From assembly GCA_009837445.1 (NCBI GenBank), contig VXTM01000004.1, positions 4,642-68,641 of the forward strand: DNA of 64,000 bases. The letters are read 5' to 3'. This stretch comes from Acidimicrobiaceae bacterium (GTDB lineage Bacteria; Actinomycetota; Acidimicrobiia; Acidimicrobiales; Aldehydirespiratoraceae). The notes below the pieces were generated by a model. That model was not told where the DNA came from. It saw only the letters and a program-made list of their open reading frames with translations, and searched no databases. This document shows positions 13,007 to 49,512 of this stretch, piece by piece (positions within the stretch are counted from its first letter, which is position 1; each line of letters opens with the position of its first letter). The translations under genes were made by a program, and so were the position numbers.

Positions 13007-13050
13007 ATTCTCTCTCGCGCCCGGCGGTGGGGTAGAACCCATCGGGGACA

Positions 13051-13145: not shown

Positions 13146-13193
13146 TACGCCGCGGCGCGAGGCGCTGGCACGCATTCGCCGCCGCTCCAATCG

Positions 13194-14594: not shown

Positions 14595-14598
14595 GGAC

Positions 14599-15012
14599 GT
14601 GAAGTTCGACCATGTGGCCATCGAGGTGAACGATTTCGACATTCGGGTCGATGCCCTCGTCAACGATGTCGGTATGACCCTCGTCCGCCACGGGATCAGG
14701 TACAGCACAGGTCAGAGAATCGCCATGCTCGGTGACGAGACGGGCGTGAAGATCGAGTTGATCGAGTCTGACGCCGGCCAGCCGACACTCGCCCATGTCG
14801 CCTTCCGTGCCGATGAGGCCGCTGCGGTCGATAAGGCCCAGGCCGGGCTGGTAGAGGCCGGCTGGTCGACGGTCAACCCGGTCCACGACCTGGCCGCAGC
14901 CAGGGCCCGGACCACCTTGGTGACCGATCGCGGCGGGCTTCACGTCCAGGTCATCGCATACCAGCCTGACAGCCCAGACCTGGGTGGGTCGGAGACGGCT
15001 GAGGAGGAGTAG
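14599..15012 (+). CDS. VOC (glyoxalase/bleomycin-resistance/dioxygenase) family protein
   Basis: MKFDHVAIEV start typical of VOC folds, then ELIES...LAHVAF. GTG start preceded by GGGAGGG. Confidence 0.7.
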   Translation: MKFDHVAIEVNDFDIRVDALVNDVGMTLVRHGIRYSTGQRIAMLGDETGVKIELIESDAGQPTLAHVAFRADEAAAVDKAQAGLVEAGWSTVNPVHDLAAARARTTLVTDRGGLHVQVIAYQPDSPDLGGSETAEEE

Positions 15013-15017
15013 CAGTC

Positions 15018-17611: not shown

Positions 17612-17617
17612 CGGCCG

Positions 17618-17646
17618 TGCGCCCAGAATCTTGGTGCGACTTTTTT
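17618..17646 (+). terminator. candidate intrinsic terminator (6-bp stem with 2 G-U pairs, then T6)
   Basis: TGCGCC-N9-GGTGCG followed by AC and TTTTTT (17641-17646), 7 nt after the stop at 17611. Confidence 0.5.
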
Positions 17647-17692
17647 GCATCCAGTCCACACAACCAACCCGAGATTCCGGTGAGGTGAGGCT

Positions 17693-18712: not shown

Positions 18713-18784
18713 GCCGCGCTCGAGAACCGGACTTCGTGTCCGTTGGCCGATGTCGGTAGGTTGCGCGTCGATAGAGGGGGAGCT

Positions 18785-19867: not shown

Positions 19868-19888
19868 GCGAATCGGTGGGCCCAAAAA

Positions 19889-19902
19889 CAGTGTGCTAAA
19901 TT
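19889..19902 (+). promoter_or_regulatory. AT-rich box CAGTGTGCTAAATT (extended -10-like TGcTAAATT), member of a recurrent motif family
   Basis: It sits 60 nt upstream of the SBP start. 13 nt are identical to the box at 62410-62425 on the opposite strand. Confidence 0.45.
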
Positions 19903-19961
19903 CCCGAGCCACGGAATCTGTGGGTGAAACCGCCCACCGACCCACATGGATGGGAGGAGAC

Positions 19962-21458
19962 ATGGGGGAGTCGAGAGCGCATCGCGGACGGATCTGGAGG
20001 TGGGTGGCGATCATGTTGGCCTTCGCCGTCGTCGCAGCCGCCTGCGGCGACGACGATGAGGAGCCGGCAAGCCAACCTGAGGCGCCGGCCGAGCCGGCGG
20101 TCGATCCCGACCCCGAACCCGACGCACCGGCCGAAGAGCCCGAGGCACCCGCCGAGGAACCCGAACCTGAGCCCGAGGCACCGGCTGAAGAGCCCGAGGC
20201 AACCGCCGAGGAACCCGAGCCCGAACCCGAAGAGGCCGCCGAGGAACCCGAGCCCGAGCCCGAACCACCGGCGTTGACGGCCAGCTACCGGGGCGTGACC
20301 GAGGACTCGATCAGCGTCGGCGTGCTGTTGATCGACAAGGACCTGCTGTTCGAGGTGGCCAACGTCCTGCTCAACTGGGGCGACAACGTGGCCCAGTACC
20401 AGGAGGCCATCGACGCCATCAACGAAGCCGGCGGCGTCAACGGTCGCCTCATCGAGCCGGTCTTCGAGTTCGTCAACCCGCTGAGCCCGACCGCCTACGA
20501 CGAGTCGTGCGTGAAGCTCACCCAGGACGAGCAGATCTTCGCCGCCATCGGCTTCGTGCGACCCTCCGACTCGGCGCTGTGCTACGCGGAGATCAACGAC
20601 ACCCCGTTCGTCGGCTACCTGTCCGACATCACCAGCCAGGTGACCGACCGCTCCGTGCTGCCCATCATCACCAGCAACGCCCTGCCCGAGCGCATGGACG
20701 GCGCGCTGGCGACCACCGTGGCGGCCACCGGCGCGCTCGACGGCAAGACCATCGCGGTGCTGGGCAACTCCGACGCCCGCAACGAGCTGATCGTCTCGGC
20801 TCTGGCCGGCCTCGGCTACGACGTCGCCTCGACCACGGTCACAGCCGTGCCGACCGAGGACGAGGCCGCCGACGCCGCCGAGCTGGACATCGTCATCCAG
20901 CGCTGGATCGCCGACGGGATCGACTTCGTCTTCGACACCGCCGGACTCGACCGCCCGCTGGCCGCCGCCAACCGGGCCGGATTCGAGGCCGACTGGGCCA
21001 CCAACCGGACGACCATCCTTTCGGCGTCGAGGTTCGACTCGGGCGCTACCGAGGCCGAGATCGCGAGGACCATGGTGGTGGCGGTGCCGTCCGTGGAGCT
21101 GATCTACGAGCAGGGCCACGGACCCACGGTGGCCTGCGTCGACCGCTGGAACCAGAACCATCCCGACGAGCAGGCCGTCTTCTACCCGGGAGAGGACGAT
21201 CTGGACAATCTCCAGCGCATCGTCCGGTCGTGCCAGCAGGTCGGCACCTTCGCCAGGGTCGCCGAACTGGCCGGGCCCGACCTGACCACGGAGAGCTTCG
21301 CGGCTGCACTGGCCCAGGTGGGCTCCTACGAGATCGCCGAGTTGCCGTTCGCGTCGCTGGGCACAGACAAGTGGGACGCCAACGACGTCGTGACCCTCTT
21401 CCACTGGGACTCCGAGCTGGGAGACTTCGTAGCGGGCGATTTCGTCGACATTGGCTGA
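19962..21458 (+). CDS. ABC substrate-binding lipoprotein (Leu/Ile/Val-binding, type 1 periplasmic-binding fold) with acidic Pro/Glu linker
   Basis: Lipobox-like LAFAVVAAACG, then a PE-rich linker, then ISVGVLL...AINEAGGVNGRLIEPVF, typical of LIV-type SBPs. The ATG at 19962 is preceded by GGGAGGAG. Confidence 0.85.
   Translation: MGESRAHRGRIWRWVAIMLAFAVVAAACGDDDEEPASQPEAPAEPAVDPDPEPDAPAEEPEAPAEEPEPEPEAPAEEPEATAEEPEPEPEEAAEEPEPEPEPPALTASYRGVTEDSISVGVLLIDKDLLFEVANVLLNWGDNVAQYQEAIDAINEAGGVNGRLIEPVFEFVNPLSPTAYDESCVKLTQDEQIFAAIGFVRPSDSALCYAEINDTPFVGYLSDITSQVTDRSVLPIITSNALPERMDGALATTVAATGALDGKTIAVLGNSDARNELIVSALAGLGYDVASTTVTAVPTEDEAADAAELDIVIQRWIADGIDFVFDTAGLDRPLAAANRAGFEADWATNRTTILSASRFDSGATEAEIARTMVVAVPSVELIYEQGHGPTVACVDRWNQNHPDEQAVFYPGEDDLDNLQRIVRSCQQVGTFARVAELAGPDLTTESFAAALAQVGSYEIAELPFASLGTDKWDANDVVTLFHWDSELGDFVAGDFVDIG
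20059..20270 (+). repeat. GAR-CCN hexanucleotide-type coding repeat (Pro/Glu/Ala linker)
   Basis: Translates to EPEAPAEEPEPEPEAPAEEPEATAEEPEPEPEEAAEEPEPEPEPP. Confidence 0.75.
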
Positions 21459-21470
21459 TTCGCCGGCCTC

Positions 21471-21511
21471 GCTTGCGGCTGCGGTCCTTGGGGGTGACCG
21501 CAGCCGCAAGC
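21471..21511 (+). terminator. perfect 16-bp stem-loop (intercistronic hairpin/attenuator) between the SBP and MFS-LivF genes
   Basis: GCTTGCGGCTGCGGTC (21471-21486), a 9-nt loop, then GACCGCAGCCGCAAGC (21496-21511). It begins 13 nt after the SBP stop and has no U-tract. Confidence 0.55.
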
Positions 21512-21555
21512 AGCCTGCGCCAGCCGAGCCGGTAGCAGACGAGCTCCTCCCCGGG

Positions 21556-23619
21556 GTGGGAGGGGCCGATCAGATAAGCCTGCGGGAGGGGCTCAAGACA
21601 GCCGGGCCGTTCACGTTCGTCGTGCTGTTGCTGCTCAACAGCCTCGACGAGCTCGAGAGCGAGATCATCACCGTGCTGGCCCCCGACATCCGGGACACGT
21701 TCGGGGTCAGCGACGGGACGATCGTGTTCATCACATCGGCCTCCGCGGCCTTCTTCGTGCTGGGCGCGGTGCCGATGGGCTACCTCGCCGACCGCTTCAA
21801 CCGGTCGCGCCTGGTGGGCTTCGCGTCGCTGGCCTTCAGTGCCATGGTGTTCCTGTCGGGGCTGGCGGTCAGCGCGTTCATGCTGTTCTGGACACGCTTC
21901 GTCGCCGGCATCTCCAAGGCCAACACCCTGCCGGTGCACGGCTCGATCATCGCCGACGCCTACCCGATCTCGGTGCGGGGGCGAATCGCGGCCACCAACT
22001 CGATGGTGGGCAAGACGCTGGCCGCCATCAGCCCCATCGCGGCGGGCTGGATCGGCCACACCTACGGATGGAGGACGCCGTTCTTCATCCTGGGGGTGCC
22101 GGTGGCGATCATGGCGCTGCTGGCGTTCAGGATCCCCGAGCCGGCTCGAGGCCAGTGGGAGAAGCGGGATGTGCTCGACGAGGTCTTCGTCGACCCCGAG
22201 GCGGCCCCGGTGTCGCTGGAGGCTGCCTTCGCGCGGCTGATGAAGATCCGCACCCTGAAGATGATGGTGGTGGGGTTCGCCGCGCTCGGGTTCAGCCTGT
22301 TCACGGTGCCGGCCCTGGCCAGCCTGTTCATGGAGGAGCAGTACGGGGCCAACGCCTTCCAGCGGGGAGTGGTCGTCTCCATCGGCGGTTTCGCCGGCAT
22401 CGCCGTGCTGCCCTTCCTGGGGCGCTACTACGACCGCGCCTACCGGGCCGACCCGTCGAGCTCGCTGCGCATGATCGGCCGGTGCATCGTGCCGATGGCG
22501 GTGGTGACCCCGGTCCAGTTCCTGATGCCCGGCATGGCCAGCTTCGCGGCGGTTGGCGTGGTCCACAGCCTGCTGGCCGTGGGCGCGTTCAGCATGGTCA
22601 TCCCCCTGATCCAGGGCATCGTGCCGTACCGGCTGCGAGGCATGGGGCTGGCCCTGATCACCCTGTACATCTTCCTCATCGGAGCCATAGGAGGCTCTCT
22701 GCTGTCGGCCTGGCTCACCAACGACTTCAGCAACCGCACCGCCGTGTTCGTGCTGGCCATCCCGGCCAACATCATCGGCGGGACGGCCCTGTACCGGGGC
22801 AGCCGGTTCATCCGGGGCGACCTGGCCCTAGCCGCCGCCGACCTGCAGGAGGAGATGGCCGAGCACCGTCGGCTCAGCTCCGACCCGGACTCGGTGCCGG
22901 CCCTCCAGGTGCGGGGGGTGGACTTCAGCTACGGCAACGTGCAGATCCTCTTCGACACCTCCTTCGAGGTGCGCCAGGGCGAGACGCTGGCGCTGCTCGG
23001 CACCAACGGCGCGGGGAAGTCCACCATCCTCAAGGTGATCACCGGGCTGGTGACCCCCGAGCGCGGCGTCATCCGCCTCGGGGGACGGACCATCACGTTC
23101 GCGACACCCGAGCACCGGGCCCGGCTCGGCATCGAGATGCTGCCGGGAGGCGCGGGGGTGTTCGGATCGCTGACGGTCCGCGACAACCTCGTGGTGGGCG
23201 CCTACCGGTACCGCAAGGACCCGGCCGACGTGGACAGGCGCATCGAGCGGGTAATGGAGCTCTTCCCGCAGTTGGCCGACCGGGCCGGCGACCGGGCCAG
23301 CAGCCTCTCGGGCGGCCAGCAGCAGATGCTGGCCCTGGCCCGGGTGATGCTGCACGAGCCCAAGATCCTGGCCATCGACGAGCTGTCGCTGGGCTTGGCC
23401 CCGGCCGCGGTGCAATCCCTGCTGGAGACCATCGACACTCTGCGGGCCGCAGGGCAGACCATGATCATCGTCGAGCAGTCGCTCAACGTCGCGCTGGCAG
23501 TGGCCGACCGGGCCGTGTTCCTCGAGAAGGGCCGGGTGCGCTTCGACGGCCCGGCCTCGGAGCTTGCCGACCGGCCCGACCTCGCCCGGGCCGTGTTCTT
23601 GGGTTCCGACGAGGCTTAG
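21556..23619 (+). CDS. chimeric protein: N-terminal 12-TM MFS-like domain fused to a LivF-type ABC ATPase
   Basis: MFS motif A GYLADRFNRSRL with about 12 hydrophobic segments. C-terminal Walker A GTNGAGKST, signature LSGGQQQM and Walker B ILAIDELS. The ORF opens at TTG 21451, but the hairpin at 21471-21511 favours GTG 21556. Confidence 0.85.
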   Translation: MGGADQISLREGLKTAGPFTFVVLLLLNSLDELESEIITVLAPDIRDTFGVSDGTIVFITSASAAFFVLGAVPMGYLADRFNRSRLVGFASLAFSAMVFLSGLAVSAFMLFWTRFVAGISKANTLPVHGSIIADAYPISVRGRIAATNSMVGKTLAAISPIAAGWIGHTYGWRTPFFILGVPVAIMALLAFRIPEPARGQWEKRDVLDEVFVDPEAAPVSLEAAFARLMKIRTLKMMVVGFAALGFSLFTVPALASLFMEEQYGANAFQRGVVVSIGGFAGIAVLPFLGRYYDRAYRADPSSSLRMIGRCIVPMAVVTPVQFLMPGMASFAAVGVVHSLLAVGAFSMVIPLIQGIVPYRLRGMGLALITLYIFLIGAIGGSLLSAWLTNDFSNRTAVFVLAIPANIIGGTALYRGSRFIRGDLALAAADLQEEMAEHRRLSSDPDSVPALQVRGVDFSYGNVQILFDTSFEVRQGETLALLGTNGAGKSTILKVITGLVTPERGVIRLGGRTITFATPEHRARLGIEMLPGGAGVFGSLTVRDNLVVGAYRYRKDPADVDRRIERVMELFPQLADRAGDRASSLSGGQQQMLALARVMLHEPKILAIDELSLGLAPAAVQSLLETIDTLRAAGQTMIIVEQSLNVALAVADRAVFLEKGRVRFDGPASELADRPDLARAVFLGSDEA

Positions 23620-23648
23620 ACCGAGCAGGACCGAGCGGAGACGCAGGG

Positions 23649-26534
23649 ATGCTTGCCGCCTGGCTCACATCGCAGCTGGTGTTCAACGGGCTGGTCAACG
23701 GGCTGGTCACCGGGCTGCTGGCCATGGGCCTGGTCCTGGTGTACCGGTCCACCCGGGTGGTGAACCTGGCCGTCGGCAACATGGGCCTGGTAGGCGCGTC
23801 GCTGCTGGCGCTCCTGGTGCTCAACTACCACTTCCCGTTCTGGCTGGCGCTGGCACTCAGCCTGGCCACCGGCACCCTGTTCGGCGCCGTCGTCGACCTG
23901 TTGGTGGTGCGCCGGCTGTTCAGCTCGCCGAGGGTGATAGTGCTGATGGCCACGGTGGGCGTGGCCCAGCTGGCCTCGGGGATCAGCGGCTCCTACCCCG
24001 ACCTCAACATGAGGGGCAACAAGTACCCCACCGCTCTATCCGGGGTGTTCGACGATGTCCTCGGGCTGCGGATCACCGGACCGCAGCTAAGCATTCTGAT
24101 CGTCGTGCCCGCAGCCGCGGTCGGGCTGGTGTGGCTGCTGCGGCGCACCACGTTCGGCCGCGCCGTGGAGGCCTCGGCCGACAATCCGTCACTGTCGCGG
24201 CTGTCCACCGTCAACCCCAAGATGGTCTCGACCTTCGTGTGGACCATCGCAGGGCTCCTGTCCACCGTCTCGATCATGCTCCTGTCGGCCCAGATCGGGA
24301 ACCCCGCCGGCTTGGACAACCTCGGGATGCTGACCATGGCCCGGGCCATGCTCGCATTCGTGCTGGCCGGCCAGCGGTCGTTCGCCCGGGCGGTGGCATT
24401 CGGTGCGCTGATCGGGGTGGGCGAGGCGGTGCTCAGGTTCAACCTGCTGACCGAGCCCGGACTGTTCGACTTCGCCGCGCTGGTGCTGGTGGTGGCCATC
24501 GTCTACCAGCAGAGCCGCTCGAGCCCGGACGACACCACCTTCGCCTTCGCGCCGAAGGCACGCCGCCCACCCGAGCGCGCTCAGGAAATCTGGTGGATCC
24601 GCAGGATGCCGCACCTGGCCGCGACGCTGATCATGGTGGCTGCTGTGCTGCTGCCGATCGTGGTGACCCGGCCCAGCCGCCACCTGCTCTACGCCTCCAT
24701 CGCCTGCTACGCGATCTGCGCCCTGTCGCTCACCGTCATCACCGGCTGGGCCGGACAGCTGTCGCTGGCCCAGATGGCCTTCGCCGGCCTGGGGGCCCTG
24801 CTGGCCGCCGCGCTCAACCGGGGCTTCGAGATGGACGTCTGGCTGCTCGACTTCCAGGCTCCAGCGATCCCCTACCTGGCCGCCATCGCGGTCGCCGCGG
24901 TGGTGATGGCGGGCGTCGCCGCGTTGGTCGGCCTAGGCGCGCTCCGGGTTCGGGGACTGCAGCTGGCCGTGATCACCTTCATGCTCGCGGTCGCAGCCGA
25001 GCAGTACATCTATCGCTGGCCGGTGCTCAGCGACGGCAACGCCAATTCGGTGTCGTTCCGCCGGGGCACGGTCCTCGGCCTGGATGTGAGCAGCCAGCGG
25101 GCCTACTACTACTTCTGTGTGGCCGTGCTGGTGGTGGTGTTCGTGCTGGTGGCCCGGCTGCGCAACAGCGGGATCGGCCGCTCCACCATCGCGGTGCGAG
25201 ACAACCCCGAGGCGGCCTCGGCCTACACCATCAGTCCGAGCCGCTCAAAGCTGGCCGCGTTCGCTATGGCCGGGGGCATCGCCGCTCTCGGCGGGGCGAT
25301 GCTGGGCGGCCTGTTCCAGAACATTCCCTTCGGTGAGCGCTACTACCTGATCGACGACTCGCTGCAGTTGGTGGCCATGGTCGTGATCGGCGGGCTCGGA
25401 GCGTTGACCGGACCGCTCGTCGGCGCCCTGTGGGTGATCGGTCTGCCTGCGTTCTTCGGTGACAACGAGCTTGTGCCCCTGTTCACGTCCAGCGTCGGGC
25501 TGCTCATCATCCTGATGTACTTCCCCGGCGGGTTCGCGCAGATCGGGTACGCCACCCGCAAGCTGCTGTACGACTGGGCTCTGCGGCGGCTGCCGCCCGA
25601 GGAGCCGGAGTCGGCCGCCAGGCCGGCGGCCGTACCGGTCACCGGCGGGGACCGGGCCCGCCCCGCGCCGGTGGGCGTGAGCGAGGGCGTAGCTCACTCA
25701 GCGCGTTCGGACGCGAGCGAGGGCGACGCCGTTCTGCGGGCCCGGGGAGTGTCGGTGAGCTTCGGCGGGCTTCAGGCGGTGTCGAGCGTCGACCTCGACG
25801 TCACCGGTGGCGAGATCGTGGGGCTCATCGGCACCAACGGCGCCGGTAAGACGACATTCGTGAACGCGGTCGGAGGCCACGTCGGCTCGCGGGGCACCGT
25901 CGAGCTGCTCGGCCACGACGTGTCGAGGCTGAGCGTGGAGGCTCGGGCCCGCCACGGGCTGGGCCGCACCTTCCAGACCGCCCGGCTGTTCGGCGAGCTG
26001 ACGGTGAGGGAGACGGTCCAGGTGGCGCTCGAGGCCCGGGGCCGCACCCCCTTCCTGAGCACCGCGCTGGGCCTGCCTGCGGCCCGGCGGCTGGCCCGGC
26101 AGCGACGGGCCGAAGCGGATGAGCTGATCGGGTTCTTCGGACTCGGCGGCTATGCCGAGGAGTTCATCGTCGACCTGTCGACCGGCACCCGCCGCGTCGT
26201 TGAGCTGACCAACCTCATGGCCCTCGACGCCAGGGTCCTCTGCCTCGACGAGCCGACCGCGGGCCTGGCCCAGCGCGAGAGCGAGGCCTTCGGGGTGCTG
26301 CTCGTGGAGGTGCGGCGCGAGTTGGAGGTGTCGATGCTGGTCATCGAGCACGACATGCCGCTCATCATGTCCATAAGCGACCGCGTGTACTGCCTCGAAG
26401 CCGGTCAGGTCATCTCCGAGGGCGCTCCGGCCGACGTCAGATCCGACCCCAAGGTGATCGACAGCTACCTCGGCACCGACGAGCGGGCCATCCTGCGCAG
26501 CGACGCTTCGGCGCCAACAGAAAGGAAAACGTGA
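23649..26534 (+). CDS. single-chain LivH-LivM-LivG (two branched-chain-type permease domains plus ATPase)
   Basis: The ATG at 23649 lies inside ORF 22068..26534. LivH-like LVNGLVTGLLAMGLVLVY, LivM-like ITGWAGQLSLAQMAFAGLGA, and an ATPase with GTNGAGKTT, LSTGTRR and LCLDEPTAG. 961 aa. Confidence 0.9.
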   Translation: MLAAWLTSQLVFNGLVNGLVTGLLAMGLVLVYRSTRVVNLAVGNMGLVGASLLALLVLNYHFPFWLALALSLATGTLFGAVVDLLVVRRLFSSPRVIVLMATVGVAQLASGISGSYPDLNMRGNKYPTALSGVFDDVLGLRITGPQLSILIVVPAAAVGLVWLLRRTTFGRAVEASADNPSLSRLSTVNPKMVSTFVWTIAGLLSTVSIMLLSAQIGNPAGLDNLGMLTMARAMLAFVLAGQRSFARAVAFGALIGVGEAVLRFNLLTEPGLFDFAALVLVVAIVYQQSRSSPDDTTFAFAPKARRPPERAQEIWWIRRMPHLAATLIMVAAVLLPIVVTRPSRHLLYASIACYAICALSLTVITGWAGQLSLAQMAFAGLGALLAAALNRGFEMDVWLLDFQAPAIPYLAAIAVAAVVMAGVAALVGLGALRVRGLQLAVITFMLAVAAEQYIYRWPVLSDGNANSVSFRRGTVLGLDVSSQRAYYYFCVAVLVVVFVLVARLRNSGIGRSTIAVRDNPEAASAYTISPSRSKLAAFAMAGGIAALGGAMLGGLFQNIPFGERYYLIDDSLQLVAMVVIGGLGALTGPLVGALWVIGLPAFFGDNELVPLFTSSVGLLIILMYFPGGFAQIGYATRKLLYDWALRRLPPEEPESAARPAAVPVTGGDRARPAPVGVSEGVAHSARSDASEGDAVLRARGVSVSFGGLQAVSSVDLDVTGGEIVGLIGTNGAGKTTFVNAVGGHVGSRGTVELLGHDVSRLSVEARARHGLGRTFQTARLFGELTVRETVQVALEARGRTPFLSTALGLPAARRLARQRRAEADELIGFFGLGGYAEEFIVDLSTGTRRVVELTNLMALDARVLCLDEPTAGLAQRESEAFGVLLVEVRRELEVSMLVIEHDMPLIMSISDRVYCLEAGQVISEGAPADVRSDPKVIDSYLGTDERAILRSDASAPTERKT

Positions 26535-28246
26535 TGGCTGCTTACGACCTGGTCGTCCGTAACGGTTCCGTCGTTGACGGCAGCGGCATGCCGGCGCGTC
26601 CTGCCGACGTGGCGGTGTCGGGCCGCAAGATCGTCGCCGTCGGCGCGGTGGAGGGCCGCGGCAGCCGTGAGATCGACGCCTCCGACCACATCGTCACGCC
26701 GGGATTCATCGACGGCCACACCCACATGGACGCCCAGTTCTTCTGGGATCCGCTGGGCACGTCCTCGTGCTGGCACGGGGTGACCACCGTGGTGGTGGGC
26801 AACTGCGGATTCACCCTGGCCCCGTGCCGGTCGGGCCAGGAGCAGCTCGTGATCGACAACCTCGAGAAGGCCGAGGACATCCCGGCCGCGGCGCTGGCCG
26901 CCGGGGTGCACTTCGAGTGGGAGACCTTCGCCCAGTACCTCGACGCCCTGGACCGGCTGCCCAAGGGGATCAACTTCGGCTCCTACCTGGGTCACTCGGC
27001 TCTGAGGACCTACGCCATGGGCGAGCGGGCCTTCGATTCGGAGGCGACCGAGGACGACCTCGAAGCCATGGAGCGAGAGCTGCGGGCCGGTCTGGCCGCC
27101 GGCGCGCTCGGCTTCACCACCTCCAGGAGCCACCACCACATGACGCCCTCGGGCCGCCCGGTGGCGTCGCGGGTGGCGCCCTGGGGCGAGGTCGAGCGCC
27201 TGGTGGCGGCCATGGCGGAGGCCGGAGGCGGAATGTTCGAGCTGGCCAACGAGTCGGTAATGGCATCCACCGACCCGGAGGGCCGGGCCGAGGCCATGGG
27301 CCGGCTGCGCCGCCTCGCGGTCGGCAACCGGGTGCCGGTCAGCTTCGGGATCTCCACCTTCGGCGATCCCAACCGCTGGCTGGAGCTGTTGCGGCTCCTC
27401 GACGACGCGGCCCGCGACGGTGCCCAGATGTGGGGCCAGAGCAGCTGCATGCCGTCGGGCGCGCTGTTCAACTTCAAGACCTGGCTGCCTTTCGACAAGG
27501 TGCCTGCCTGGTCCGAGCTGCGGGCCCGGCCCCTCGACGAGCAGACCGTCAAGCTGCGTGATCCGGACGTGCGGGCCAGTCTGATCGAGTCGCTCAGCGG
27601 CATGGACTTCTCACTGGGCAAGGAGGTGGCCCGCAAGCCGCTGTTCGAGCGGATCGTGGTGATGCAGCGCGACAGGGCCACCTCCCCCACGCTGGCCAGC
27701 GTGGCCGCTGAACGCGGCGTGCACCCGGCAGAAGCCATGATCGATCTGGGCCTGGAGTCCGACTTCGACACGTTCTTCCTGCAGATCACCAGCAACGACG
27801 AACCTGACGATGTGCTGACGATGCTGCGCCACCCCCGCACGGTCATGACCTTCTCCGACGCGGGGGCCCATGTGAGCCAGATCATCAGCGCGTCGCTGCA
27901 GACCTACCTGCTCAGCCACTGGGTGCGGGAGGTCGACGAGTTCTCCATCGAGGAGGCGGTGCGCATGATCACCCTGGTGCCTTCGAGCATCTGGGGCATG
28001 GCCGACCGAGGTCTGGTGCGTGAGGGCTTCGAGGCCGACCTGAACATCATCGACCTCGAGCGCCTGGAGCCGTGCGTGCCCGAGGTCGTCCACGACCTGC
28101 CGGCCGGCGCGACCCGGCTCACTCAGCGGGCCGAGGGCATCACGGCCACCATCGTGGGAGGCGAGGTGCTCCTAGAGGACGGCGAGCACACCGGCGCGCT
28201 GCCCGGCCGCCTAATCCGCCGCGCCGCTCTCAACCGGCCGATGTGA
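26531..28246 (+). CDS. N-acyl-D-amino-acid deacylase (D-aminoacylase, amidohydrolase family)
   Basis: YDLVVRNGSVVDGSG...VTPGFIDGHTHMD N-terminal signature, 571 aa. Start overlaps the upstream stop. Confidence 0.9.
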   Translation: MMAAYDLVVRNGSVVDGSGMPARPADVAVSGRKIVAVGAVEGRGSREIDASDHIVTPGFIDGHTHMDAQFFWDPLGTSSCWHGVTTVVVGNCGFTLAPCRSGQEQLVIDNLEKAEDIPAAALAAGVHFEWETFAQYLDALDRLPKGINFGSYLGHSALRTYAMGERAFDSEATEDDLEAMERELRAGLAAGALGFTTSRSHHHMTPSGRPVASRVAPWGEVERLVAAMAEAGGGMFELANESVMASTDPEGRAEAMGRLRRLAVGNRVPVSFGISTFGDPNRWLELLRLLDDAARDGAQMWGQSSCMPSGALFNFKTWLPFDKVPAWSELRARPLDEQTVKLRDPDVRASLIESLSGMDFSLGKEVARKPLFERIVVMQRDRATSPTLASVAAERGVHPAEAMIDLGLESDFDTFFLQITSNDEPDDVLTMLRHPRTVMTFSDAGAHVSQIISASLQTYLLSHWVREVDEFSIEEAVRMITLVPSSIWGMADRGLVREGFEADLNIIDLERLEPCVPEVVHDLPAGATRLTQRAEGITATIVGGEVLLEDGEHTGALPGRLIRRAALNRPM

Positions 28247-34171: not shown

Positions 34172-36394
34172 ATGGTGCTGACACCGGCTGCAGCTGAGCG
34201 CGTCTCAGCCCTGACACCGACGCTCACACCGCGTCCGAAGTTCCATGTCACCCGCAAGCTGGTGGGCGTCCCGAAATGGCCGCTCGTGCTGCTGACGGCC
34301 GTCTACACCATCAACGTGAGCGACCAGTTCCTGCTGTCGTCCATGTTCCCGCTGCTCAAGCGGGAGTTCGGCCTGTCCGACACCGCGCTGGGCATCCTCA
34401 GCGGTTCCTACCTGATCAGCGTGACCCTCGGTACCGTGCCTTTCGGGGCGCTGGCCGACCGCTACAGCCGCACCAGGATCATCGCCTGGGGCACGGCCTT
34501 CTGGGGGGTCACCATGATCTTCACCGGCATGGCCAGCGGCTTCTTCATGCTGCTGCTCGGTCGGATGGTGCTCGGCCTGTGGGATCCATGCGACAACCCG
34601 ACCTCGCAGTCGCTACTTGCCGACTACTACCCGGTGAACCAGCGCTCCAAAGTGATGGGCATCTACCAGATGGGCCAGCTCGTCGGGTTCTTCCTGCTGC
34701 CCATCGGCGGGCTCATGGGTCAGGCCTGGGGATGGCGGGCGACGTTCTTCTTCTTCGCGCTGCCCGCGTTCGTGGTGGCCCTGCTGAGCTGGCGCCTGCC
34801 CGAACCGGTCAGGGGGGTGCAGGAGCGGCGCCACCAGCGGCTCGAGTCCGACGAGAGCACCGTGATCGCATCAAAGTTACAGGGCCTTTCCATAGCGGAC
34901 GCCTACAAACACATCCTGCGGTGTCGCTCCTATACGGCCAGCCTGGTGTCCTCCGCGGTCGGCAGCCTCTTCTTCGGCGGCATCGGTGTGTGGACGCCGA
35001 CATTCCTGATCCGCTACCACGACCTGGACATCGCCGAGGCCTCCACCGCGATCATCGTGGTCGCGCTGGGCGGGCTGGTGGGCGTGCTCACGGCCGGCAA
35101 TCTCGCCGACTTCCTGACCCAGTCGGGCTACCTGTCGGCCCGGATCGGCGTGGCCGGGATCGCCCGCGTGATCTCGGCGCCGCTGTTCATGGCGGCGTTC
35201 CTGGTGAGCTACACGCCGCTGATGCTGCTGCTGTTCTCGTTCGGCGCCCTGTTCCTGGTAGGTGCCCTCCCGCCCCTCAACGCGGCCCGGGTCGATGTGC
35301 TGCATCCCGACCTGCGCGGCCGGGGCACCTCCCTGGACGCGGTCACCCAGAGCCTGGCCTCGGCGGCGTCGCCGGTGATCTACGGCATCATCGCCGACGC
35401 CAGCGATCTGCGGACCGCCTACCTGACACTCATCCCGCTGGCCGCGCTGGCCGGGCTGATCCTGTTGACGTTCGCGCTGGCCAGCTACCGGCGCGACGAG
35501 CAGGCCGTGCAGGAGCTGGTCCGACACGATCACGCCCGCCACGTCGCTCGCCTGACCGGAGACGGCCAGGAGCTCGAAGAGCCGGTCCCGATGGCGTCGC
35601 ACGGGAGCGATCCCGGTGCGGGGACAGCCCAGCCCCTGACCGGGGACCATGACGCCGCAGCCTCTGCCGAAGGAGTGGAGTCGTTGCTGCGGATCGAGGG
35701 GCTCGACTTCTCCTACGGGCCGATCCAGGTGCTCTTCGGCATCGACATGACCCTGCCGCAGGGCGGGTGCCATGCGCTGGTGGGCCGCAACGGCGTGGGC
35801 AAGACCACGCTGCTGGCCAACATCGGCGGCCTGCTGCACGCCCAGTCGGGCCAGATGTTCCTGCGGGACCAGGACCTGATCGGCATACCGCCAGAGCAAC
35901 GGGCCCGGCTCGGCATCACCCTGATGGCCGCCGGACAGTCGATATTCCCGTCGCTCAGCGTGCGGGACAACCTCTGGTTCGGCGGGTACCACTTCGCCGG
36001 CAGCGAGGGACTCGTCGACGACCGTCTCGACGAAGTCCTCGAAGTGTTCCCGGCATTGGGCCAGAGACTGGGCCAGCGGGCCGGAACCCTCTCCGGCGGC
36101 GAGCAACAGATGGTGGCGCTCGGCCGTGCCCTGGTGGCCGGCCCGGACCTTCTGCTGATCGACGAGCTCAGTCTCGGTCTGGCCCCGACCGTGACCGTGG
36201 AGCTCCTTGAGGTAGTGGAGAGAATTGCCGGTCTGGGCACGACGATCCTGCTCGTCGAGCAGTCGATCGGTGTGGCGTTGTCGGTGGCCGACACGGTGTT
36301 GTTCATGGATCGGGGCCGGGTGAGCGAATTGGGGCCTGCCGCCGAACTCGACGCCGACGCCCTGGCACTGCGGCTGCTGGAGAGCCACGAATGA
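34172..36394 (+). CDS. chimeric protein: MFS-like 12-TM domain fused to a LivF-type ABC ATPase (paralog of 21556..23619)
   Basis: MFS motif A GALADRYSRTRII. ATPase has GRNGVGKTT, LSGGEQQM and LLLIDELSLG. 740 aa, a single uninterrupted ORF. Confidence 0.9.
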   Translation: MVLTPAAAERVSALTPTLTPRPKFHVTRKLVGVPKWPLVLLTAVYTINVSDQFLLSSMFPLLKREFGLSDTALGILSGSYLISVTLGTVPFGALADRYSRTRIIAWGTAFWGVTMIFTGMASGFFMLLLGRMVLGLWDPCDNPTSQSLLADYYPVNQRSKVMGIYQMGQLVGFFLLPIGGLMGQAWGWRATFFFFALPAFVVALLSWRLPEPVRGVQERRHQRLESDESTVIASKLQGLSIADAYKHILRCRSYTASLVSSAVGSLFFGGIGVWTPTFLIRYHDLDIAEASTAIIVVALGGLVGVLTAGNLADFLTQSGYLSARIGVAGIARVISAPLFMAAFLVSYTPLMLLLFSFGALFLVGALPPLNAARVDVLHPDLRGRGTSLDAVTQSLASAASPVIYGIIADASDLRTAYLTLIPLAALAGLILLTFALASYRRDEQAVQELVRHDHARHVARLTGDGQELEEPVPMASHGSDPGAGTAQPLTGDHDAAASAEGVESLLRIEGLDFSYGPIQVLFGIDMTLPQGGCHALVGRNGVGKTTLLANIGGLLHAQSGQMFLRDQDLIGIPPEQRARLGITLMAAGQSIFPSLSVRDNLWFGGYHFAGSEGLVDDRLDEVLEVFPALGQRLGQRAGTLSGGEQQMVALGRALVAGPDLLLIDELSLGLAPTVTVELLEVVERIAGLGTTILLVEQSIGVALSVADTVLFMDRGRVSELGPAAELDADALALRLLESHE

Positions 36395-36930
36395 GCTCCT
36401 CGGCAGGCGCGCCGGATCCGCCGGGGGGCGACACACGCCCGAACACCGGCGAAGCGACCGGGTACGCGCCAGTCACCGCACAACTGCTGGACGCGGGCGC
36501 ACAGACGGCCAGACGGCTGCTGGGACCGTGGTGGAACGAGCGGTCCCGGCGAGCGCTCTTCGGCGTGCTCATCACCGCAGGCTTCCTGGTGGGTCTGGTG
36601 CTGGGCCTCCGCGACGTCTACGACCGGCCGGTCCTCGATGTCGGGGAGCCGAGGGTCAGAGTCGAGGGACTGACCGCAACGGTGCAGGTGACGGTTCGCA
36701 ACACCTCCGAGGACATCGCCTACTGCCCGGTGGTGGGGGTGGCGGCCCTCGACCGCGACGGCCTCGATCTGGCCAAGGCCCCCACCTCTGTCGACCTAGG
36801 CGATGCCCGGCTGGCGCCCAAGGCCAGCGCCAACTTCGTGGGCGTGCTCACCGGCATCAGCCAGCAGGACTTCGACGAGCAACTCAGTGATTACGCCGCG
36901 TTCGTGGAGCAGGAGAACCCCTGTCCATGA
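36391..36930 (+). CDS. hypothetical single-pass membrane protein with small extracytoplasmic domain
   Basis: ATGA overlap with the upstream gene. TM segment ALFGVLITAGFLVGLVLGL, followed by beta-strand-like VRVEGLTATVQVTVRNTSEDIAY. No family recognised. Confidence 0.6.
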   Translation: MSSSAGAPDPPGGDTRPNTGEATGYAPVTAQLLDAGAQTARRLLGPWWNERSRRALFGVLITAGFLVGLVLGLRDVYDRPVLDVGEPRVRVEGLTATVQVTVRNTSEDIAYCPVVGVAALDRDGLDLAKAPTSVDLGDARLAPKASANFVGVLTGISQQDFDEQLSDYAAFVEQENPCP

Positions 36931-37020: not shown

Positions 37021-39858
37021 ATGACGCTGCCGCTGGCCGGATTCGAGGTGCCCCACAACGTCGTCATCCTCGGCCTGATCACCGGCCTCACCTACTCGCT
37101 GCTTGGGTTGGGGATCACGCTCGTCTACCGGTCCTCCCGAGTCATCAACTTCGCGCACGGCGAGATGGGCGCGCTGGCCGCGCTCATGATCCCGATCTTC
37201 GCCCTCAATCTCGGTTGGCCCTACGCCATCGCACTGGTGATCGCGCTGATGGTGGCAGCAGCCGTCGGCGGGCTCTTCGAGTTCCTGGTGATCCGGCCCC
37301 TGCGATCTGCGTCCCGCCTGACCGTGCTGGTAGCCACCATCGGAGCATCGCAACTGCTGTTCTTCGGTGGCGCCCTGCTCCCCAAGGGCGGAGACATCGT
37401 GGGCAAGATCTACCCGACGCCCTTCGACTGGCGGTTCACCCTCGGAAAGCTCATTCTCGGGCCCGGCCAGCTGACCATCCTGGTCGCGGTCCCGATCCTG
37501 ACCATCGCTCTGACCCTATTCCTGGGCCGCAGCCGGCTGGGCAAGGCCAGCCGGGCCGCCGCCGAGAACACCGACGCGGCTCGCCTGGCCGGGGTGCCGA
37601 TCGACCGGGTGTCCTTCGCGGTGTGGACCGCGGCCGGGTTGCTCGCCGGGGTGTCAGCCATCCTCATCGGACCGACCCGACCCCTCGCGCTGTCGCAAGC
37701 TCTCGGCCCGCAACTCATGTTGAAGGCCCTCGCAGCCGCCATGCTCGGAGGGCTTACCCGCTTCTCGTCGGTATTCGCCGCGGGCATAGCCATCGGGATT
37801 CTCGAGGCCCTCGTGCTATGGAACTACCCGATCGGCGGTGCCTTGGACCTGGTGCTGTTCGCGGCGATCGCCGGCAGCTTCCTCATGAAGAAGGGCCTGG
37901 GCTCAGTGCTGCGAGGCTCCGAGCAGAGTTCCTGGTCGCTAGCCGCGGCCATCACACCCCTTGCGCCCGCGGTGGCGGGCCATTTCCGGGTCCGGTCCAC
38001 GAAGGTCGTACTGCTGGGCGCGATGCTGGCCGCGGCCGCCTACCTGCCCGCCCGCATGACGTCGTCGGAGCAGTTCTTTCTGGGCGCGGTCGCACTATTC
38101 GCGGTGTTGGGACTCTCGTTGGTGGTCCTGACCGGATTCGCAGGACAGGTCTCGCTCGGCCAGTTCGCTTTCGTGGCCGTCGGCGCGGCCCTCGGAGGCC
38201 GCCTCTACCAGATGGGCCTTCCCCACGGCCCGACACTCGTGGCCGTGACGGTGGCCGGCGGCCTGGTCGCGCTGTTGATAGGCGTGCCGGCTCTGCGGAT
38301 CCGGGGCCTGTTCCTAGCCGTCATCACGCTCGCCTTCTCGGTGGCCGCCAGCGGGTGGCTGCTGGAGCAGGACTGGCTCAACCATCGAGGCAGCGATGGG
38401 GGCACGTCGATGTCGATCCCGCGGCCGACCTTCGCCGGTGCCGGCTTCGACGACGAGATCCGCTACTACTGGGTCTGCCTGGGGGCGCTGCTGGTCACGA
38501 TGTTCGCCGTCCACCGGCTCCGGCGCAGCGGGCTCGGGCGGCGGATGGTCGCGGTCCGCGACAACGAGCCGTCAGCGGCGAGCATGGCCGTGTCGCCGCG
38601 CACCACCAAGCTGTCGGCCTTCGTGATCTCGGGAATGATCGCATCGTTCGGCGGGTTCCTCTACGGCGGCCTGCTGGTCACGTTCTCCGGGGACATCGAC
38701 GGGACGTTCGGCCCCGGCGAGTCGCTGTCGTTGGTGGTGATGACCATCTTCGGCGGGGTCACCACCATCACCGGCGCGGTCCTCGGAGCCTTTTGGGTGC
38801 AGGGCATACCCCGGATCCTGGGCGAGGACTGGGGCTTGCTCTCCTCGGGCATCGGCGTTCTGGCGGTGCTGCTCCTGCTGCCGGGCGGGCTGGCCTCGGT
38901 GGTCTTCGCCACCCGCGACAAACTGGTGGAGGCCGCGGCCGCCCGCGGACTGCTACCCGGCACTGAGCCGGCGGGCGAAGTCGCCGACGACCGGGTTCCT
39001 GCTCCGACGGAGCCGGTCGCGCCGCCGGTCCGGTCCGGCGACGATGAGGTGCTGGCCGCGTCGGGGGTGTCGGTGACCTACGGCGGGGTGAGCGCCCTAC
39101 GTGATGTCTCCATCAGCGTGAAGCGCCATGAGATCGTCGGTGTGATGGGGCCCAACGGGGCTGGCAAGACCACGCTGTTCGATGTCCTCTCGGGCCATCA
39201 GCGCCCCGACTCGGGCATCGTCTTGCTCGACGGGCGCGACATCAGCTCGCTGCCCGCCCACCGGCGGGCCCGGCTGGGGCTGGGCCGGTCCTTTCAGCAG
39301 GCCCGGCTGTTCGAGGACATGATGCTGGTGGACGCCGTGAGTCTGGCTTCCGAGCGCGACATGCCGATCCGGCTGGCCCCGATGCTTCTGGGCACGCCCC
39401 GAGCGCGCCGTCAGGAGCGGGAACGCGACCAGGCCGCGCTGCAGACTCTGGAGCGGTTGGGCCTCACCGAACACGCCCACCACCAGATCGGCAACCTGTC
39501 CACCGGCACGCGGCGCCTGGCCGAGCTGGCATGCGCGTTGGCGCTGGGGGCCCATGTGGTGCTGCTCGACGAGCCGACCGCCGGACTGAGCCCCCGGGAG
39601 GTTGACGACTTCGTTCGGGTCATCTCTGAACTGCACACTCGCCTATCGATGACCATCGTCGTGATAGACCACGACGTGGCCGTGATGCGCTCGCTGGTGG
39701 ACCGCCTATACGTGCTCGAGGCCGGCGATGAGATCGCGGCCGGCCCGCCTTCCATCCTCGACACCGACCGCCGGGTGGTGGAGGCCTACATGGGAACCCG
39801 CGATCCCGGCCCGTTCTCGACAAGGGGAGCATCGGACCGCTATCACGAGGGCCGTTGA
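37021..39858 (+). CDS. single-chain LivH-LivM-LivG (paralog of 23649..26534)
   Basis: 945 aa. LivH-like VVILGLITGLTYSLLGLGITLVY, LivM-like LTGFAGQVSLGQFAFVAVGA, and an ATPase with GPNGAGKTT, LSTGTRR and VLLDEPTAG. Confidence 0.9.
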   Translation: MTLPLAGFEVPHNVVILGLITGLTYSLLGLGITLVYRSSRVINFAHGEMGALAALMIPIFALNLGWPYAIALVIALMVAAAVGGLFEFLVIRPLRSASRLTVLVATIGASQLLFFGGALLPKGGDIVGKIYPTPFDWRFTLGKLILGPGQLTILVAVPILTIALTLFLGRSRLGKASRAAAENTDAARLAGVPIDRVSFAVWTAAGLLAGVSAILIGPTRPLALSQALGPQLMLKALAAAMLGGLTRFSSVFAAGIAIGILEALVLWNYPIGGALDLVLFAAIAGSFLMKKGLGSVLRGSEQSSWSLAAAITPLAPAVAGHFRVRSTKVVLLGAMLAAAAYLPARMTSSEQFFLGAVALFAVLGLSLVVLTGFAGQVSLGQFAFVAVGAALGGRLYQMGLPHGPTLVAVTVAGGLVALLIGVPALRIRGLFLAVITLAFSVAASGWLLEQDWLNHRGSDGGTSMSIPRPTFAGAGFDDEIRYYWVCLGALLVTMFAVHRLRRSGLGRRMVAVRDNEPSAASMAVSPRTTKLSAFVISGMIASFGGFLYGGLLVTFSGDIDGTFGPGESLSLVVMTIFGGVTTITGAVLGAFWVQGIPRILGEDWGLLSSGIGVLAVLLLLPGGLASVVFATRDKLVEAAAARGLLPGTEPAGEVADDRVPAPTEPVAPPVRSGDDEVLAASGVSVTYGGVSALRDVSISVKRHEIVGVMGPNGAGKTTLFDVLSGHQRPDSGIVLLDGRDISSLPAHRRARLGLGRSFQQARLFEDMMLVDAVSLASERDMPIRLAPMLLGTPRARRQERERDQAALQTLERLGLTEHAHHQIGNLSTGTRRLAELACALALGAHVVLLDEPTAGLSPREVDDFVRVISELHTRLSMTIVVIDHDVAVMRSLVDRLYVLEAGDEIAAGPPSILDTDRRVVEAYMGTRDPGPFSTRGASDRYHEGR

Positions 39859-48030: not shown

Positions 48031-49512
48031 ATGAGCAAGACCGCACGCACACTCCTGGGGCGGGCTGCGGCACTGGCAACTGTGCTCTCCATGATGGCGG
48101 CCGCCTGCGGCTCCGACAGCGGCGACACCGAACCGGCCTCGCAGCCCGCCCAGCAGCAGGGGACTCGGGCCACAAGCCCCCCGGAGGAGGCCGGTCAGCC
48201 CGAGACTTCCGCGGACGAGTCCGCCCCCGCCGACGACGCGCCCGCCGGCGCGTCTGACGACACCGCCACAGAGGAGACACCAGCCACTACCGCAGCACCG
48301 ACCGAGACCGGCACCACGACGGACGAGCCGCCCGCCACCACCGTTCCTTCCCGGATCGTGCGGATCGGCGTCGCCTTCCCCGACCTCGAAGCCTTCGCGG
48401 TCCTCAACCCTGAGTTCGGCATCGGCGATCCCGAGGCGCAGGCCCTGGCCGTGGTCGACCAGTGGACACGAGAGGGCCTCCTGCCTGCGGGCATCGGCGT
48501 GGAGCTCGTCTTCGGGAAATACAACATCATCAGCGACTCGGCCAAGCTCGGTGTCTGCACTGCCCTCGCCCAGGATTCCGACGTGTTCGCCGCGGTGTCC
48601 AGCGTCAGTTTCACCGTTGGCGCCGAGTGCCTCGCCACCCGGTTCGAGATCCCGATCATCGACACCGACGGCGCTCCCCCATCGCTCTACCAGCGGGGCG
48701 CACCCTGGTTCTTCACCCTGCGCGCCGATCACGGCACACACCTGCGCAGCTACGCCCAGTGGGCCATCGACAACGGCTTGTTCGACGGGAACGTGGGGAT
48801 GTACTACGAAACCCGCCTCGACGAGGGCGTGGAGCAACTGCGCGAGCAGGTCGCCGCGGCCGGCTTCGAGATCGCCTCGGAGACGGCGACGTCGGGCGAG
48901 GGAGTGGGCAGCCCCGAGGATCCCGTCGCAGTGCAGCGCTTCATCGCCGACAGTGTCGATGTGGTGCTGCCGCTGGTGGGCGGTTCGAGCCTTGCCGGTG
49001 TGATGGGCTTCGCCGAGAGTCAGGGCTACCGGCCGATTTACCTGTCCAACGACTACGGAGAGCAGACCGCGGACGTGTCGGGAAAGACACTTCCGGCAGA
49101 GCAGTACGACGGGACCCTGGCCATGACCATGAAGCGGGCTGGCGAGATCGCGGCCGGGATGGTCAACGCAGAGGCGGAGGCCTGTCTGTCCAACTACGAG
49201 CGGTACTCCGGCACCGACATCGAGAGACGCGCCCCCGAGACCGGAGAGTTCGCCAGCATCCTGAGGACATGCGACCTCCTGTCCCTCGTGCTTGCCGGCT
49301 TGCACGGCGCGGCGGCCGACCTAACTAGGGAGAACTTCGTGGCCGCGCTCGAGACCTCGGGCGACTTCACGCCGGCGGGCGTCGCCCCCGGCTCCTTCGG
49401 TCCCGGCGACCACTCCCTGGTGGACCACTACCGGGCGATCCAGTGGGACGCCGGTTGCCCGTGCTGGGTGGCGGTGTCGGACTTCATACCCATGGCCGGT
49501 CGCGACAGCTAG
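48031..49512 (+). CDS. ABC substrate-binding lipoprotein (Leu/Ile/Val-binding type)
   Basis: The ATG at 48031 follows GAGGAG. Lipobox LSMMAAACG, an acidic/Thr linker, then RIGVAFPDLE...DSDVFAAVSS, typical of LIV-type SBPs. Confidence 0.85.
   Translation: MSKTARTLLGRAAALATVLSMMAAACGSDSGDTEPASQPAQQQGTRATSPPEEAGQPETSADESAPADDAPAGASDDTATEETPATTAAPTETGTTTDEPPATTVPSRIVRIGVAFPDLEAFAVLNPEFGIGDPEAQALAVVDQWTREGLLPAGIGVELVFGKYNIISDSAKLGVCTALAQDSDVFAAVSSVSFTVGAECLATRFEIPIIDTDGAPPSLYQRGAPWFFTLRADHGTHLRSYAQWAIDNGLFDGNVGMYYETRLDEGVEQLREQVAAAGFEIASETATSGEGVGSPEDPVAVQRFIADSVDVVLPLVGGSSLAGVMGFAESQGYRPIYLSNDYGEQTADVSGKTLPAEQYDGTLAMTMKRAGEIAAGMVNAEAEACLSNYERYSGTDIERRAPETGEFASILRTCDLLSLVLAGLHGAAADLTRENFVAALETSGDFTPAGVAPGSFGPGDHSLVDHYRAIQWDAGCPCWVAVSDFIPMAGRDS

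Follow-up and report, generated by a model that had tools for sequence, protein, structure and literature searches.

ABC (ATP-binding cassette) transporters and carriers of the major facilitator superfamily (MFS) form the two largest transporter superfamilies and are normally seen as mechanistically separate, the former running on ATP and the latter on ion gradients. Among ABC importers, the HAAT systems (TC 3.A.1.4), such as LivJ/K-HMGF of Escherichia coli and UrtABCDE, combine two BPD_transp_2 membrane domains (LivH/UrtB-like and LivM/UrtC-like), a LivG/UrtD-type ATPase with a BCA_ABC_TP_C tail, a LivF/UrtE-type ATPase and a substrate-binding protein (SBP) of the Peripla_BP_6 type. We analyzed a 64-kb stretch of DNA with a G+C content of ∼70% from an Acidimicrobiaceae bacterium (contig VXTM01000004.1, positions 4,642 to 68,641; hereafter the window), which has all of these parts in common with the HAAT systems and differs in how they are joined: LivH, LivM and LivG form one chain, and LivF carries an N-terminal 12-helix MFS domain.

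Additional domains on importer ATPases are known from the C-terminal domains of MalK, MetN and ModC and the CBS domains of OpuA, all of which are regulatory. By analogy, the MFS domain may work like these, as an extra ATPase domain able to sense ligand and throttle hydrolysis; those domains, however, are small, soluble and C-terminal, whereas the one described here is N-terminal, embedded in the membrane and comprises a whole transporter fold. LplT-Aas unites an MFS protein with an acyltransferase/acyl-ACP (acyl carrier protein) synthetase. Fusions of a sensor kinase to an MFS domain are listed as family TC 2.A.1.34 (PMC3924187). Both set a precedent for the covalent coupling of an MFS domain to a cytoplasmic enzyme or signalling domain, but their partner is a kinase or a lipid-metabolic enzyme, and neither fusion involves the motor of another class of transporter. 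To our knowledge, none of MalK, MetN, ModC, OpuA, TC 2.A.1.34 and LplT-Aas joins an MFS carrier to an ABC motor. We found no paper or curated NCBIfam model for an MFS-LivF or other MFS-ABC fusion; TCDB and InterPro lay outside this search, and prior curation is possible. What appears to be new is the covalent union of an MFS carrier and an ABC ATPase, in an apparently uncharacterised variant of a known importer family.

The first of two such loci in the window (locus 1) comprises the following genes and domains:

19893..21458 (+): SBP lipoprotein (SBP1) open reading frame (ORF), 521 aa; Pfam, translation, orthologues directly upstream in the related loci L001-L008
21451..23619 (+): MFS-LivF fusion gene, 722 aa, TTG start; profile searches, AlphaFold2
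21451..21600 (+): cytoplasmic N-terminal extension of the fusion, aa 1-50, with a short helix and a conserved LPGVG motif; P34 at least 90% conserved
21607..22800 (+): 12-helix MFS domain, aa 53-450; Pfam MFS_1, AlphaFold2, Foldseek, conservation, ratio of nonsynonymous to synonymous substitution rates (dN/dS)
22810..22881 (+): conserved charged helix after transmembrane helix 12 (TM12), aa 454-477, the joint between MFS domain and ATPase; AlphaFold2 helix, conservation
22900..23619 (+): LivF/UrtE-type nucleotide-binding domain, aa 484-722; NCBIfam, PDB 1ji0, alignment with E. coli LivF
23649..26534 (+): LivH-LivM-LivG triple fusion gene, 961 aa; Pfam, NCBIfam
23649-24548 (+): LivH-like part, ∼aa 1-300; Pfam BPD_transp_2, NCBIfam UrtB
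24666-25598 (+): LivM-like part, ∼aa 340-650; Pfam BPD_transp_2, NCBIfam UrtC
25716-26534 (+): LivG-type ATPase, ∼aa 690-961, with signature LSTGTRR and switch IEHD; ABC_tran, BCA_ABC_TP_C, LivG
26531..28246 (+): amidohydrolase (Amidohydro_3), 571 aa; Pfam E 2.1e-34

An initial annotation, made from the sequence alone, had proposed that the first of the two large genes encodes a chimera of an MFS domain and a LivF-type ATPase. That the chimera is genuine follows from profile searches, the predicted structure and the conservation of the fusion across other genomes. The sequence strings on which the proposal was based (GYLADRFNRSRL, GTNGAGKST, LSGGQQQM and ILAIDELS) are all found in the ORF at 21451-23619. 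Pfam identifies MFS_1 at residues 65-414 (E 4.1e-37; 128.3 bits vs a cutoff of 33.4) and ABC_tran at residues 502-644 (E 1.1e-29), and the MFS nature of the N-terminal domain, evident from the MFS_1 score, is borne out by the presence of motif A and a 12-helix model. The ATPase matches UrtE (2.1e-53) and LivF (2.5e-50) best among the NCBIfam models and PDB entry 1ji0 with E 1e-46 (TM-score 0.89, normalised to 1ji0). It has the Walker A sequence GTNGAGKST, the signature LSGGQQQ and the Walker B sequence ILAIDE, with VEQ replacing the switch His.

In the full-length AlphaFold2 model (pLDDT, the predicted local distance difference test, 84.3; pTM, the predicted template modelling score, 0.77), residues 53-450 form 12 long helices and residues 454-477 one continuous helix, after which comes a canonical ATPase fold. 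The topology of the fusion is consistent: the C-terminus of MFS proteins is cytoplasmic, as the ATPase must be. A Foldseek search of the PDB with this model found no solved structure matching an MFS fold and an ABC ATPase as one chain. A structural analogue of the whole chain was rejected, the matches being to ATPases together with spurious alignments to type IV exporters (root-mean-square deviation >20 Å).

The second large gene had been described as LivH, LivM and LivG in one 961-aa chain, and the domain order found by Pfam and NCBIfam agrees. Pfam detects BPD_transp_2 twice (E 3.1e-52), ABC_tran (6.1e-23) and BCA_ABC_TP_C (6.2e-10). Among the NCBIfam models LivG comes first (9e-60), followed by UrtD, with UrtB matching aa 10-287 and UrtC aa 347-630. 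A public protein (P0271) is 100% identical to this chain and is named only 'ATP-binding cassette domain-containing protein'. Among the best 60 of the 262 matches in a sequence search of the PDB, all were ATPase domains and none was a solved membrane domain of the LivH/LivM type. All NCBIfam equivalog scores lie far under their cutoffs (for example LivF 171 vs 441 bits, LivG 202 vs 362), which leaves room for a substrate other than amino acids or urea. As judged from these profiles, the ABC parts belong to the HAAT/LivHMGF kind, each defining domain being present and only equivalence at the level of the substrate being absent; the extra domain belongs to the MFS by profile, motif and fold.

The initial annotation had also taken the signature LSTGTRR of the LivG-type domain, set against LSGGQQQ in the LivF-type domain, as an atypical feature hinting at asymmetric ATP sites. 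We aligned the ATPases of both loci with LivG and LivF of E. coli. The difference does exist, but we rejected it as a peculiarity of this locus: E. coli LivG has LAYGDQRR at the position of LSTGTRR, and both E. coli LivF and the two fused LivF domains have VEQ where LivG has IEH/IDH. The LivG-type domain aligns with E. coli LivG including an insertion and the degenerate signature. The asymmetry, with a degenerate signature in LivG and Gln for the switch His in LivF, is common to HAAT systems. By its design the family thus has one consensus site, built of the LivG P-loop, its His switch and the LSGGQ of LivF, and one non-consensus site, built of the LivF P-loop, Gln and the degenerate LivG signature. 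The only new point is which subunit bears the MFS domain, namely the one with a non-consensus ATP site of its own.

The architecture is common, not rare. In a word-indexed search of 5.8 billion proteins, the 120 best matches that we examined are 58-91% identical to the fusion, nearly all of them 690-830 aa long (a few are shorter, apparently truncated), and every one carries both PF07690 and PF00005. A scan of GTDB with one genome per species gave at least 361 loci with relatives, several genomes having two or more modules like the window. The best 80 loci, which we examined, come from metagenome-assembled genomes (MAGs) of Acidimicrobiia (sponge-associated bins, Ca. Poriferisocius, Ca. Aldehydirespiratoraceae, Microthrix and Ilumatobacteraceae) and from cultured Frankia and Parafrankia. 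The window itself is 93-97% identical in nucleotide sequence to a contig of a sponge-derived Acidimicrobiaceae MAG. MFS and LivF share one stop-free ORF in all 78 loci that hold all parts, and in 77 of these LivH, LivM and LivG lie in one ORF directly downstream, after a median gap of 21 nt; in the remaining one (L049) the sequence is broken at several points, as is typical of a noisy assembly. The two-gene module is kept in a marine group with LivH-M-G proteins of 947 aa and in the most divergent fused members, at 28-37% identity (L090, L091 and L092, the last being the isolate Ilumatobacter fluminis, MFS-LivF protein WP_166657336). No split version of MFS-LivF was found among the 78 loci or these distant members, and the two genes were never found apart in the loci examined. 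Databases label the proteins only generically, as "MFS transporter" or "ATP-binding protein" or with a double COG label from JGI (Joint Genome Institute).

An ABC transporter requires two nucleotide-binding domains. The LivH-M-G chain has one ATPase, and the 64-kb window has no LivF-type domain other than the two that are fused to MFS domains; the fusion protein must therefore be the partner ATPase. This argues strongly that the 722-aa and 961-aa proteins form one complex, and we are highly confident that the locus encodes a real HAAT-type importer with MFS-LivF as its second ATPase.

The fold of the MFS domain was predicted with good confidence when modelled alone (pLDDT 88, pTM 0.83); across the AlphaFold2 models (pLDDT 84-88) it comprises 12 long helices plus loop helices. 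The top 50 Foldseek matches of the MFS-only model are all MFS carriers with a probability of 1.00, led by SPNS2, HnSpns, DgoT, Spns1 and MdfA (TM-scores 0.70-0.78), and a phmmer search with the domain found EmrB (1.5e-10) as well as HnSpns, the latter over query residues 12-385. Spns proteins, of the Spinster-like subfamily TC 2.A.1.49, are among the best matches by both structure and sequence, at 16-19% identity, with DgoT, MdfA and EmrB scoring similarly. The top NCBIfam matches are AAHS, ACS and DHA2, all under cutoff, and no curated NCBIfam MFS subfamily reaches its threshold with this domain. The domain has the 12-helix fold, motifs A and B and an acidic residue in TM1 in common with carriers of the Spinster/DHA/ACS type (HnSpns 6e8j/6e9c, SPNS2, Spns1, DgoT, MdfA and EmrB). 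It is only 14-20% identical to them, and they are autonomous, whereas here the domain is covalently tied to an ABC ATPase.

Both canonical MFS motifs are present: motif A (G-x-L-a-D-R-x-G-R-r, loop 2-3) as G110-x-L-A-D114-R115-x-x-R118 and motif B (R-x-x-x-G, TM4) as R149-x-x-x-G153. Further features are D66 in TM1, A-D169-x-Y-P...R176-x-R178, GW207R208, EP-x-R233G, D328/R332 in loop 8-9 and P392-Y-R-L-R396. Conservation was assessed on 44 non-redundant sequences, filtered at 80% identity and reaching down to ∼28% identity. At least 89% conserved in this set are D114, R115, R118, R149, G153 and D66, the D169-x-Y-P element, R176, R178, W207, R208, R233, E237, R305, D328 and R396, and in the post-TM12 helix D457, E467 and R474; R332 follows with 84%. 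The list includes Arg/Asp residues of loops 8-9 and 10-11. In alignment A1 the residues G110, A113, D114, R118 and G153 are invariant, and R115 and R149 at least 90% conserved. The post-TM12 helix has an invariant D457, with E467 and R474 conserved to at least 90%. The two halves of the domain are unequal, most helices of the N half being better conserved than most of the C half; TM5 and TM11 depart from this rule. Stronger conservation of the N half is often seen in MFS carriers that are proton-coupled.

In the three closest pairs of sequences the dN/dS of the MFS part is 0.03-0.15, vs 0.09-0.17 for the ATPase, which indicates that the MFS part is, like the ATPase, under purifying selection. 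The median identity of the related loci to locus 1 is 50% for the MFS part, 51% for LivH, 56% for LivM, 66-70% for the ATPases and 29% for the SBP. Between the two paralogues of the window the corresponding values are 25% for MFS, 24% for SBP, 38-39% for LivH/M and 43-46% for the ATPases. Since the divergence of the MFS part between paralogues matches that of the SBP, the MFS part may be expected to recognise a ligand, an argument that is only suggestive. On balance, given the conserved motifs and the selection, it is somewhat more likely than not that the MFS domain can still bind or transport a ligand. The sequence evidence argues against a decayed scaffold; the choice among other roles lies beyond sequence.

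Searching 1.84 billion cluster representatives with the MFS part gave 191 matches below 1e-30. Full-length matches at 32% identity or more are fused proteins of ∼700-750 aa, and stand-alone full-length relatives (420-475 aa) appear only at ∼28-31% identity, beside equally distant fused ones. These stand-alone relatives already have the start of the post-TM12 helix, including the Asp. Three of them lie beside an amidase/alpha-beta-hydrolase/short-chain dehydrogenase cluster (L083, 8001-9425), a PKS-NRPS (polyketide synthase and nonribosomal peptide synthetase) cluster (L085, 8001-9272) and a patatin gene (L082, 1815-3224). An ancestor with six unfused genes, considered as a Rosetta-stone test, found no support: the stand-alone relatives P0250, P0254, P0263 and P0265 stand in unrelated contexts, and no livF or livHMG genes were found beside them. 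As the stand-alone relatives exist as ordinary MFS genes, it would be a working carrier that was recruited; apparently this happened once and the fusion has been kept since.

We infer the function of the MFS domain from these direct observations of domain content, intact frames, obligate gene pairing and selection. Overall, the explanation that accounts best for them, and which we hold to be reasonably probable, is a two-chain HAAT importer whose MFS domain is a working carrier or sensor module coupled to LivF. As expected from the family, the lipoprotein SBP would bind an extracellular compound and dock on LivH/LivM. Chain A (LivH-LivM-LivG) would supply both membrane domains and an ATPase with the consensus catalytic elements, and chain B the obligatory LivF-type ATPase, tied to a Spinster/DHA-like 12-helix MFS domain by the charged post-TM12 helix. 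ATP binding and hydrolysis by the LivG-LivF heterodimer would power import, with the LivF P-loop going to the non-consensus ATP site, and the amidohydrolase would process the imported compound. The MFS domain would sit in the membrane beside LivH/LivM as a ligand-binding, alternating-access module and not as a dead anchor, its conformational state being mechanically tied to the LivF ATPase through the helix. It could gate the ATPase, by trans-inhibition or substrate sensing, or it could carry a related compound or a product while held 1:1 with the importer. We favour a hybrid machine whose two components, a proton-coupled carrier or sensor on the one hand and an ATP-driven importer on the other, would regulate each other.

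If real, an allosteric coupling of the MFS domain to the ABC motor would constitute the first hybrid known between a secondary and a primary active transporter; we regard such coupling as a tentative and rather doubtful proposal. Two versions of it can be envisaged: ATP-driven closure of LivG-LivF might gate or power the MFS pathway, or a ligand- or proton-dependent state of the MFS domain might switch the importer on and off through the post-TM12 helix. Any single specific mode of coupling is, at best, similarly doubtful.

Several observations weigh against a working MFS module coupled to the importer. Its cavity-lining residues are not strongly conserved across the family, and most helices of its C half are weakly conserved. 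The conserved motifs would also persist if only the stability of the fold mattered. Residues 463-483, leading from the helix to the ATPase, show a high dN/dS (0.47-0.85) in close pairs, albeit over few codons, and this weakens the idea of rigid coupling. The SBP gene, traced by similarity to SBP1, is not always adjacent (53 of 76 loci). The other neighbouring genes differ widely between related loci, so that the substrate cannot be named; reading it from gene context was attempted and rejected, the contexts being too variable.

Some of these points suit an MFS domain that has no transport activity and only holds LivF at the membrane, fixing its 1:1 assembly with LivH-M-G, and that might in addition give the lipoprotein SBP a surface to dock on. 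The varied cavity and the weak C half are in keeping with such an anchor, as is the lack of an inferable substrate, and with LivG already fused to the membrane domains LivF is the one loose subunit, whose assembly a membrane fusion solves. For this purpose, however, one or two helices would suffice, whereas members as distant as 28% identity retain twelve helices along with motifs A and B, the TM1 Asp and the loop 8-9 motif, under a selection as strong as that on true translocator domains. We consider an anchor or scaffold unlikely to be the whole role of the domain.

Still less likely are two independent transporters that share one polypeptide, the MFS domain being an autonomous proton-coupled carrier free of allosteric cross-talk with the importer. 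It might, for example, export the product of hydrolysis or take up the same nutrient with low affinity, and the fusion would then serve co-expression and co-localisation only. An operon alone would give co-expression, and it is hard to reconcile with independence that the fusion is invariant in all 78 loci and in the distant members with no split version found, or that the post-TM12 helix is conserved with its invariant D457. On its side, this explanation has the occurrence of stand-alone relatives in unrelated catabolic or biosynthetic clusters, the frequent hydrolase neighbours and the fast evolution of the linker at aa 463-483.

A frameshift or missed stop joining an MFS gene to a livF gene, for which the metagenome-type origin of the window is the only support, is practically negligible and was rejected, as the initial annotation had anticipated: the ORFs are intact in 78 of 78 (MFS-LivF) and 77 of 78 (LivH-M-G) independently assembled loci, some of them in isolate genomes or on closed chromosomes, a diverged paralogue is present in the same window, and the coding-type base composition is even along the fusion gene (G+C content at third codon positions, GC3, of 0.94).

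This paralogue (locus 2), in which the same architecture had been said to recur at 34172-39858, was recovered with both of its fusions by Pfam and NCBIfam. The features assigned to it are:

34172..36394 (+): paralogous MFS-LivF fusion, 740 aa, MFS_1 and ABC_tran; Pfam, NCBIfam
36391..36930 (+): 179-aa ORF between the two large genes; translation, GC3, profile search
37021..39858 (+): paralogous LivH-LivM-LivG fusion, 945 aa; Pfam, NCBIfam
48031..49512 (+): second SBP1-type lipoprotein; lipobox MMAAAC, 24-26% identity to SBP1

The MFS_1 score of locus 2 is 173.8 bits (cutoff 33.4), and relative to locus 1 the MFS part is 25% and the LivF part 46% identical. The 179-aa ORF, missing from the initial annotation, starts in an overlap with the upstream stop (ATGA), has a GC3 of 0.84 and encodes one transmembrane helix and an extracytoplasmic domain of ∼100 aa. 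It has no match in Pfam or NCBIfam and no similar ORF in 80 related loci, and may be a lineage-specific accessory subunit. An RNA element in the 627-nt gap of locus 2 was considered and rejected, as the gap holds this coding-like ORF; Rfam found no RNA elements within 17-43 kb, the gap included. Locus 2 lacks a binding-protein gene of its own. The second lipoprotein, ∼8 kb away, has a low-complexity linker and no Pfam or NCBIfam match, and is a candidate for the binding protein of locus 2.

Tandem paralogous modules with several SBPs were observed in another Acidimicrobiia genome (L088, ENA ERZ25069412 contig, 9001-20349). There the two-gene module adjoins the housekeeping genes ffh, rimM, trmD, rplS, dprA and an xerC-like gene, and is followed by two Peripla_BP_6 genes and then by a second MFS-ABC_tran gene.

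In locus 1 the SBP and amidohydrolase genes, neither of which figured in the initial annotation, are part of a tight gene string: the end of the SBP gene overlaps the start of the MFS-LivF gene by 8 nt, and the LivH-M-G stop overlaps the amidohydrolase start by 4 nt, as seen in the sequence. The SBP (19893-21458) has a signal peptide, the lipobox VAAAC, a long Pro/Glu-rich linker and a Peripla_BP_6-like domain, the match being weak yet above threshold (E 3.4e-8; 34.0 bits vs a cutoff of 31.7); NCBIfam gave no match to it. Its true start is likely the ATG at 19950 or 19962. Peripla_BP_6 genes also adjoin homologous modules, and hydrolase genes are frequent neighbours. An orthologue of the amidohydrolase directly follows LivH-M-G in L001-L004 and lies elsewhere nearby in L005-L007. 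The amidohydrolase is probably a cytoplasmic enzyme acting on the imported compound.

Downstream of the amidohydrolase, two overlapping ORFs in different frames (28072-29379 and 28689-30047, + strand) match alpha/beta-hydrolases or esterases in consecutive stretches, and may be either one frameshifted esterase gene or a pair of neighbouring genes. Several indels and a ∼1 kb insertion set the related MAG contig L001 apart from the window here. A divergent block (30127-34257, - strand) lies between the two loci:

30127-31590 (-): stand-alone MFS transporter
31590-32735 (-): SMP-30/gluconolactonase-like protein
32449-34257 (-): thiamine-diphosphate enzyme, whose real start is probably later than the ORF start

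Beyond locus 2, genes for an Amidohydro_2 protein and a TauD-type dioxygenase occur twice, on opposite strands (39862-40788 with 40807-41643, and 45561-46991 with 47007-48194), near a cytochrome P450 (44423-45763) and a 2-hydroxyacid dehydrogenase and family III CoA-transferase (50664-53003). The gene set at 39862-53003 suggests a catabolic island for an organic compound. At the other end, positions 1-4000 of the window have a G+C fraction of ∼0.625 vs ∼0.70 elsewhere.

A covalent MFS-ATPase fusion that serves an ABC importer as an obligatory subunit lends itself naturally to testing for cross-talk between two modes of energising transport. It is invariant over deep divergence, is found in several copies per genome in Acidimicrobiia and also occurs in Frankia. 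Acidimicrobiia include sponge symbionts, marine lineages and the wastewater genus Microthrix. The fusion adds a sixth module, so far unrecognised, to a major family of nutrient-uptake systems. Generic annotation hides the identity of the fusion proteins as the missing LivF of the neighbouring permease gene, and metabolic reconstructions of the organisms that carry them probably miscount importers. The cultured carriers Ilumatobacter fluminis, Frankia and Parafrankia make experiments possible. If the coupling is true, a single machine would bring together proton-motive force and ATP, and this machine would be a widespread and often multi-copy HAAT-type uptake chassis of Acidimicrobiia.

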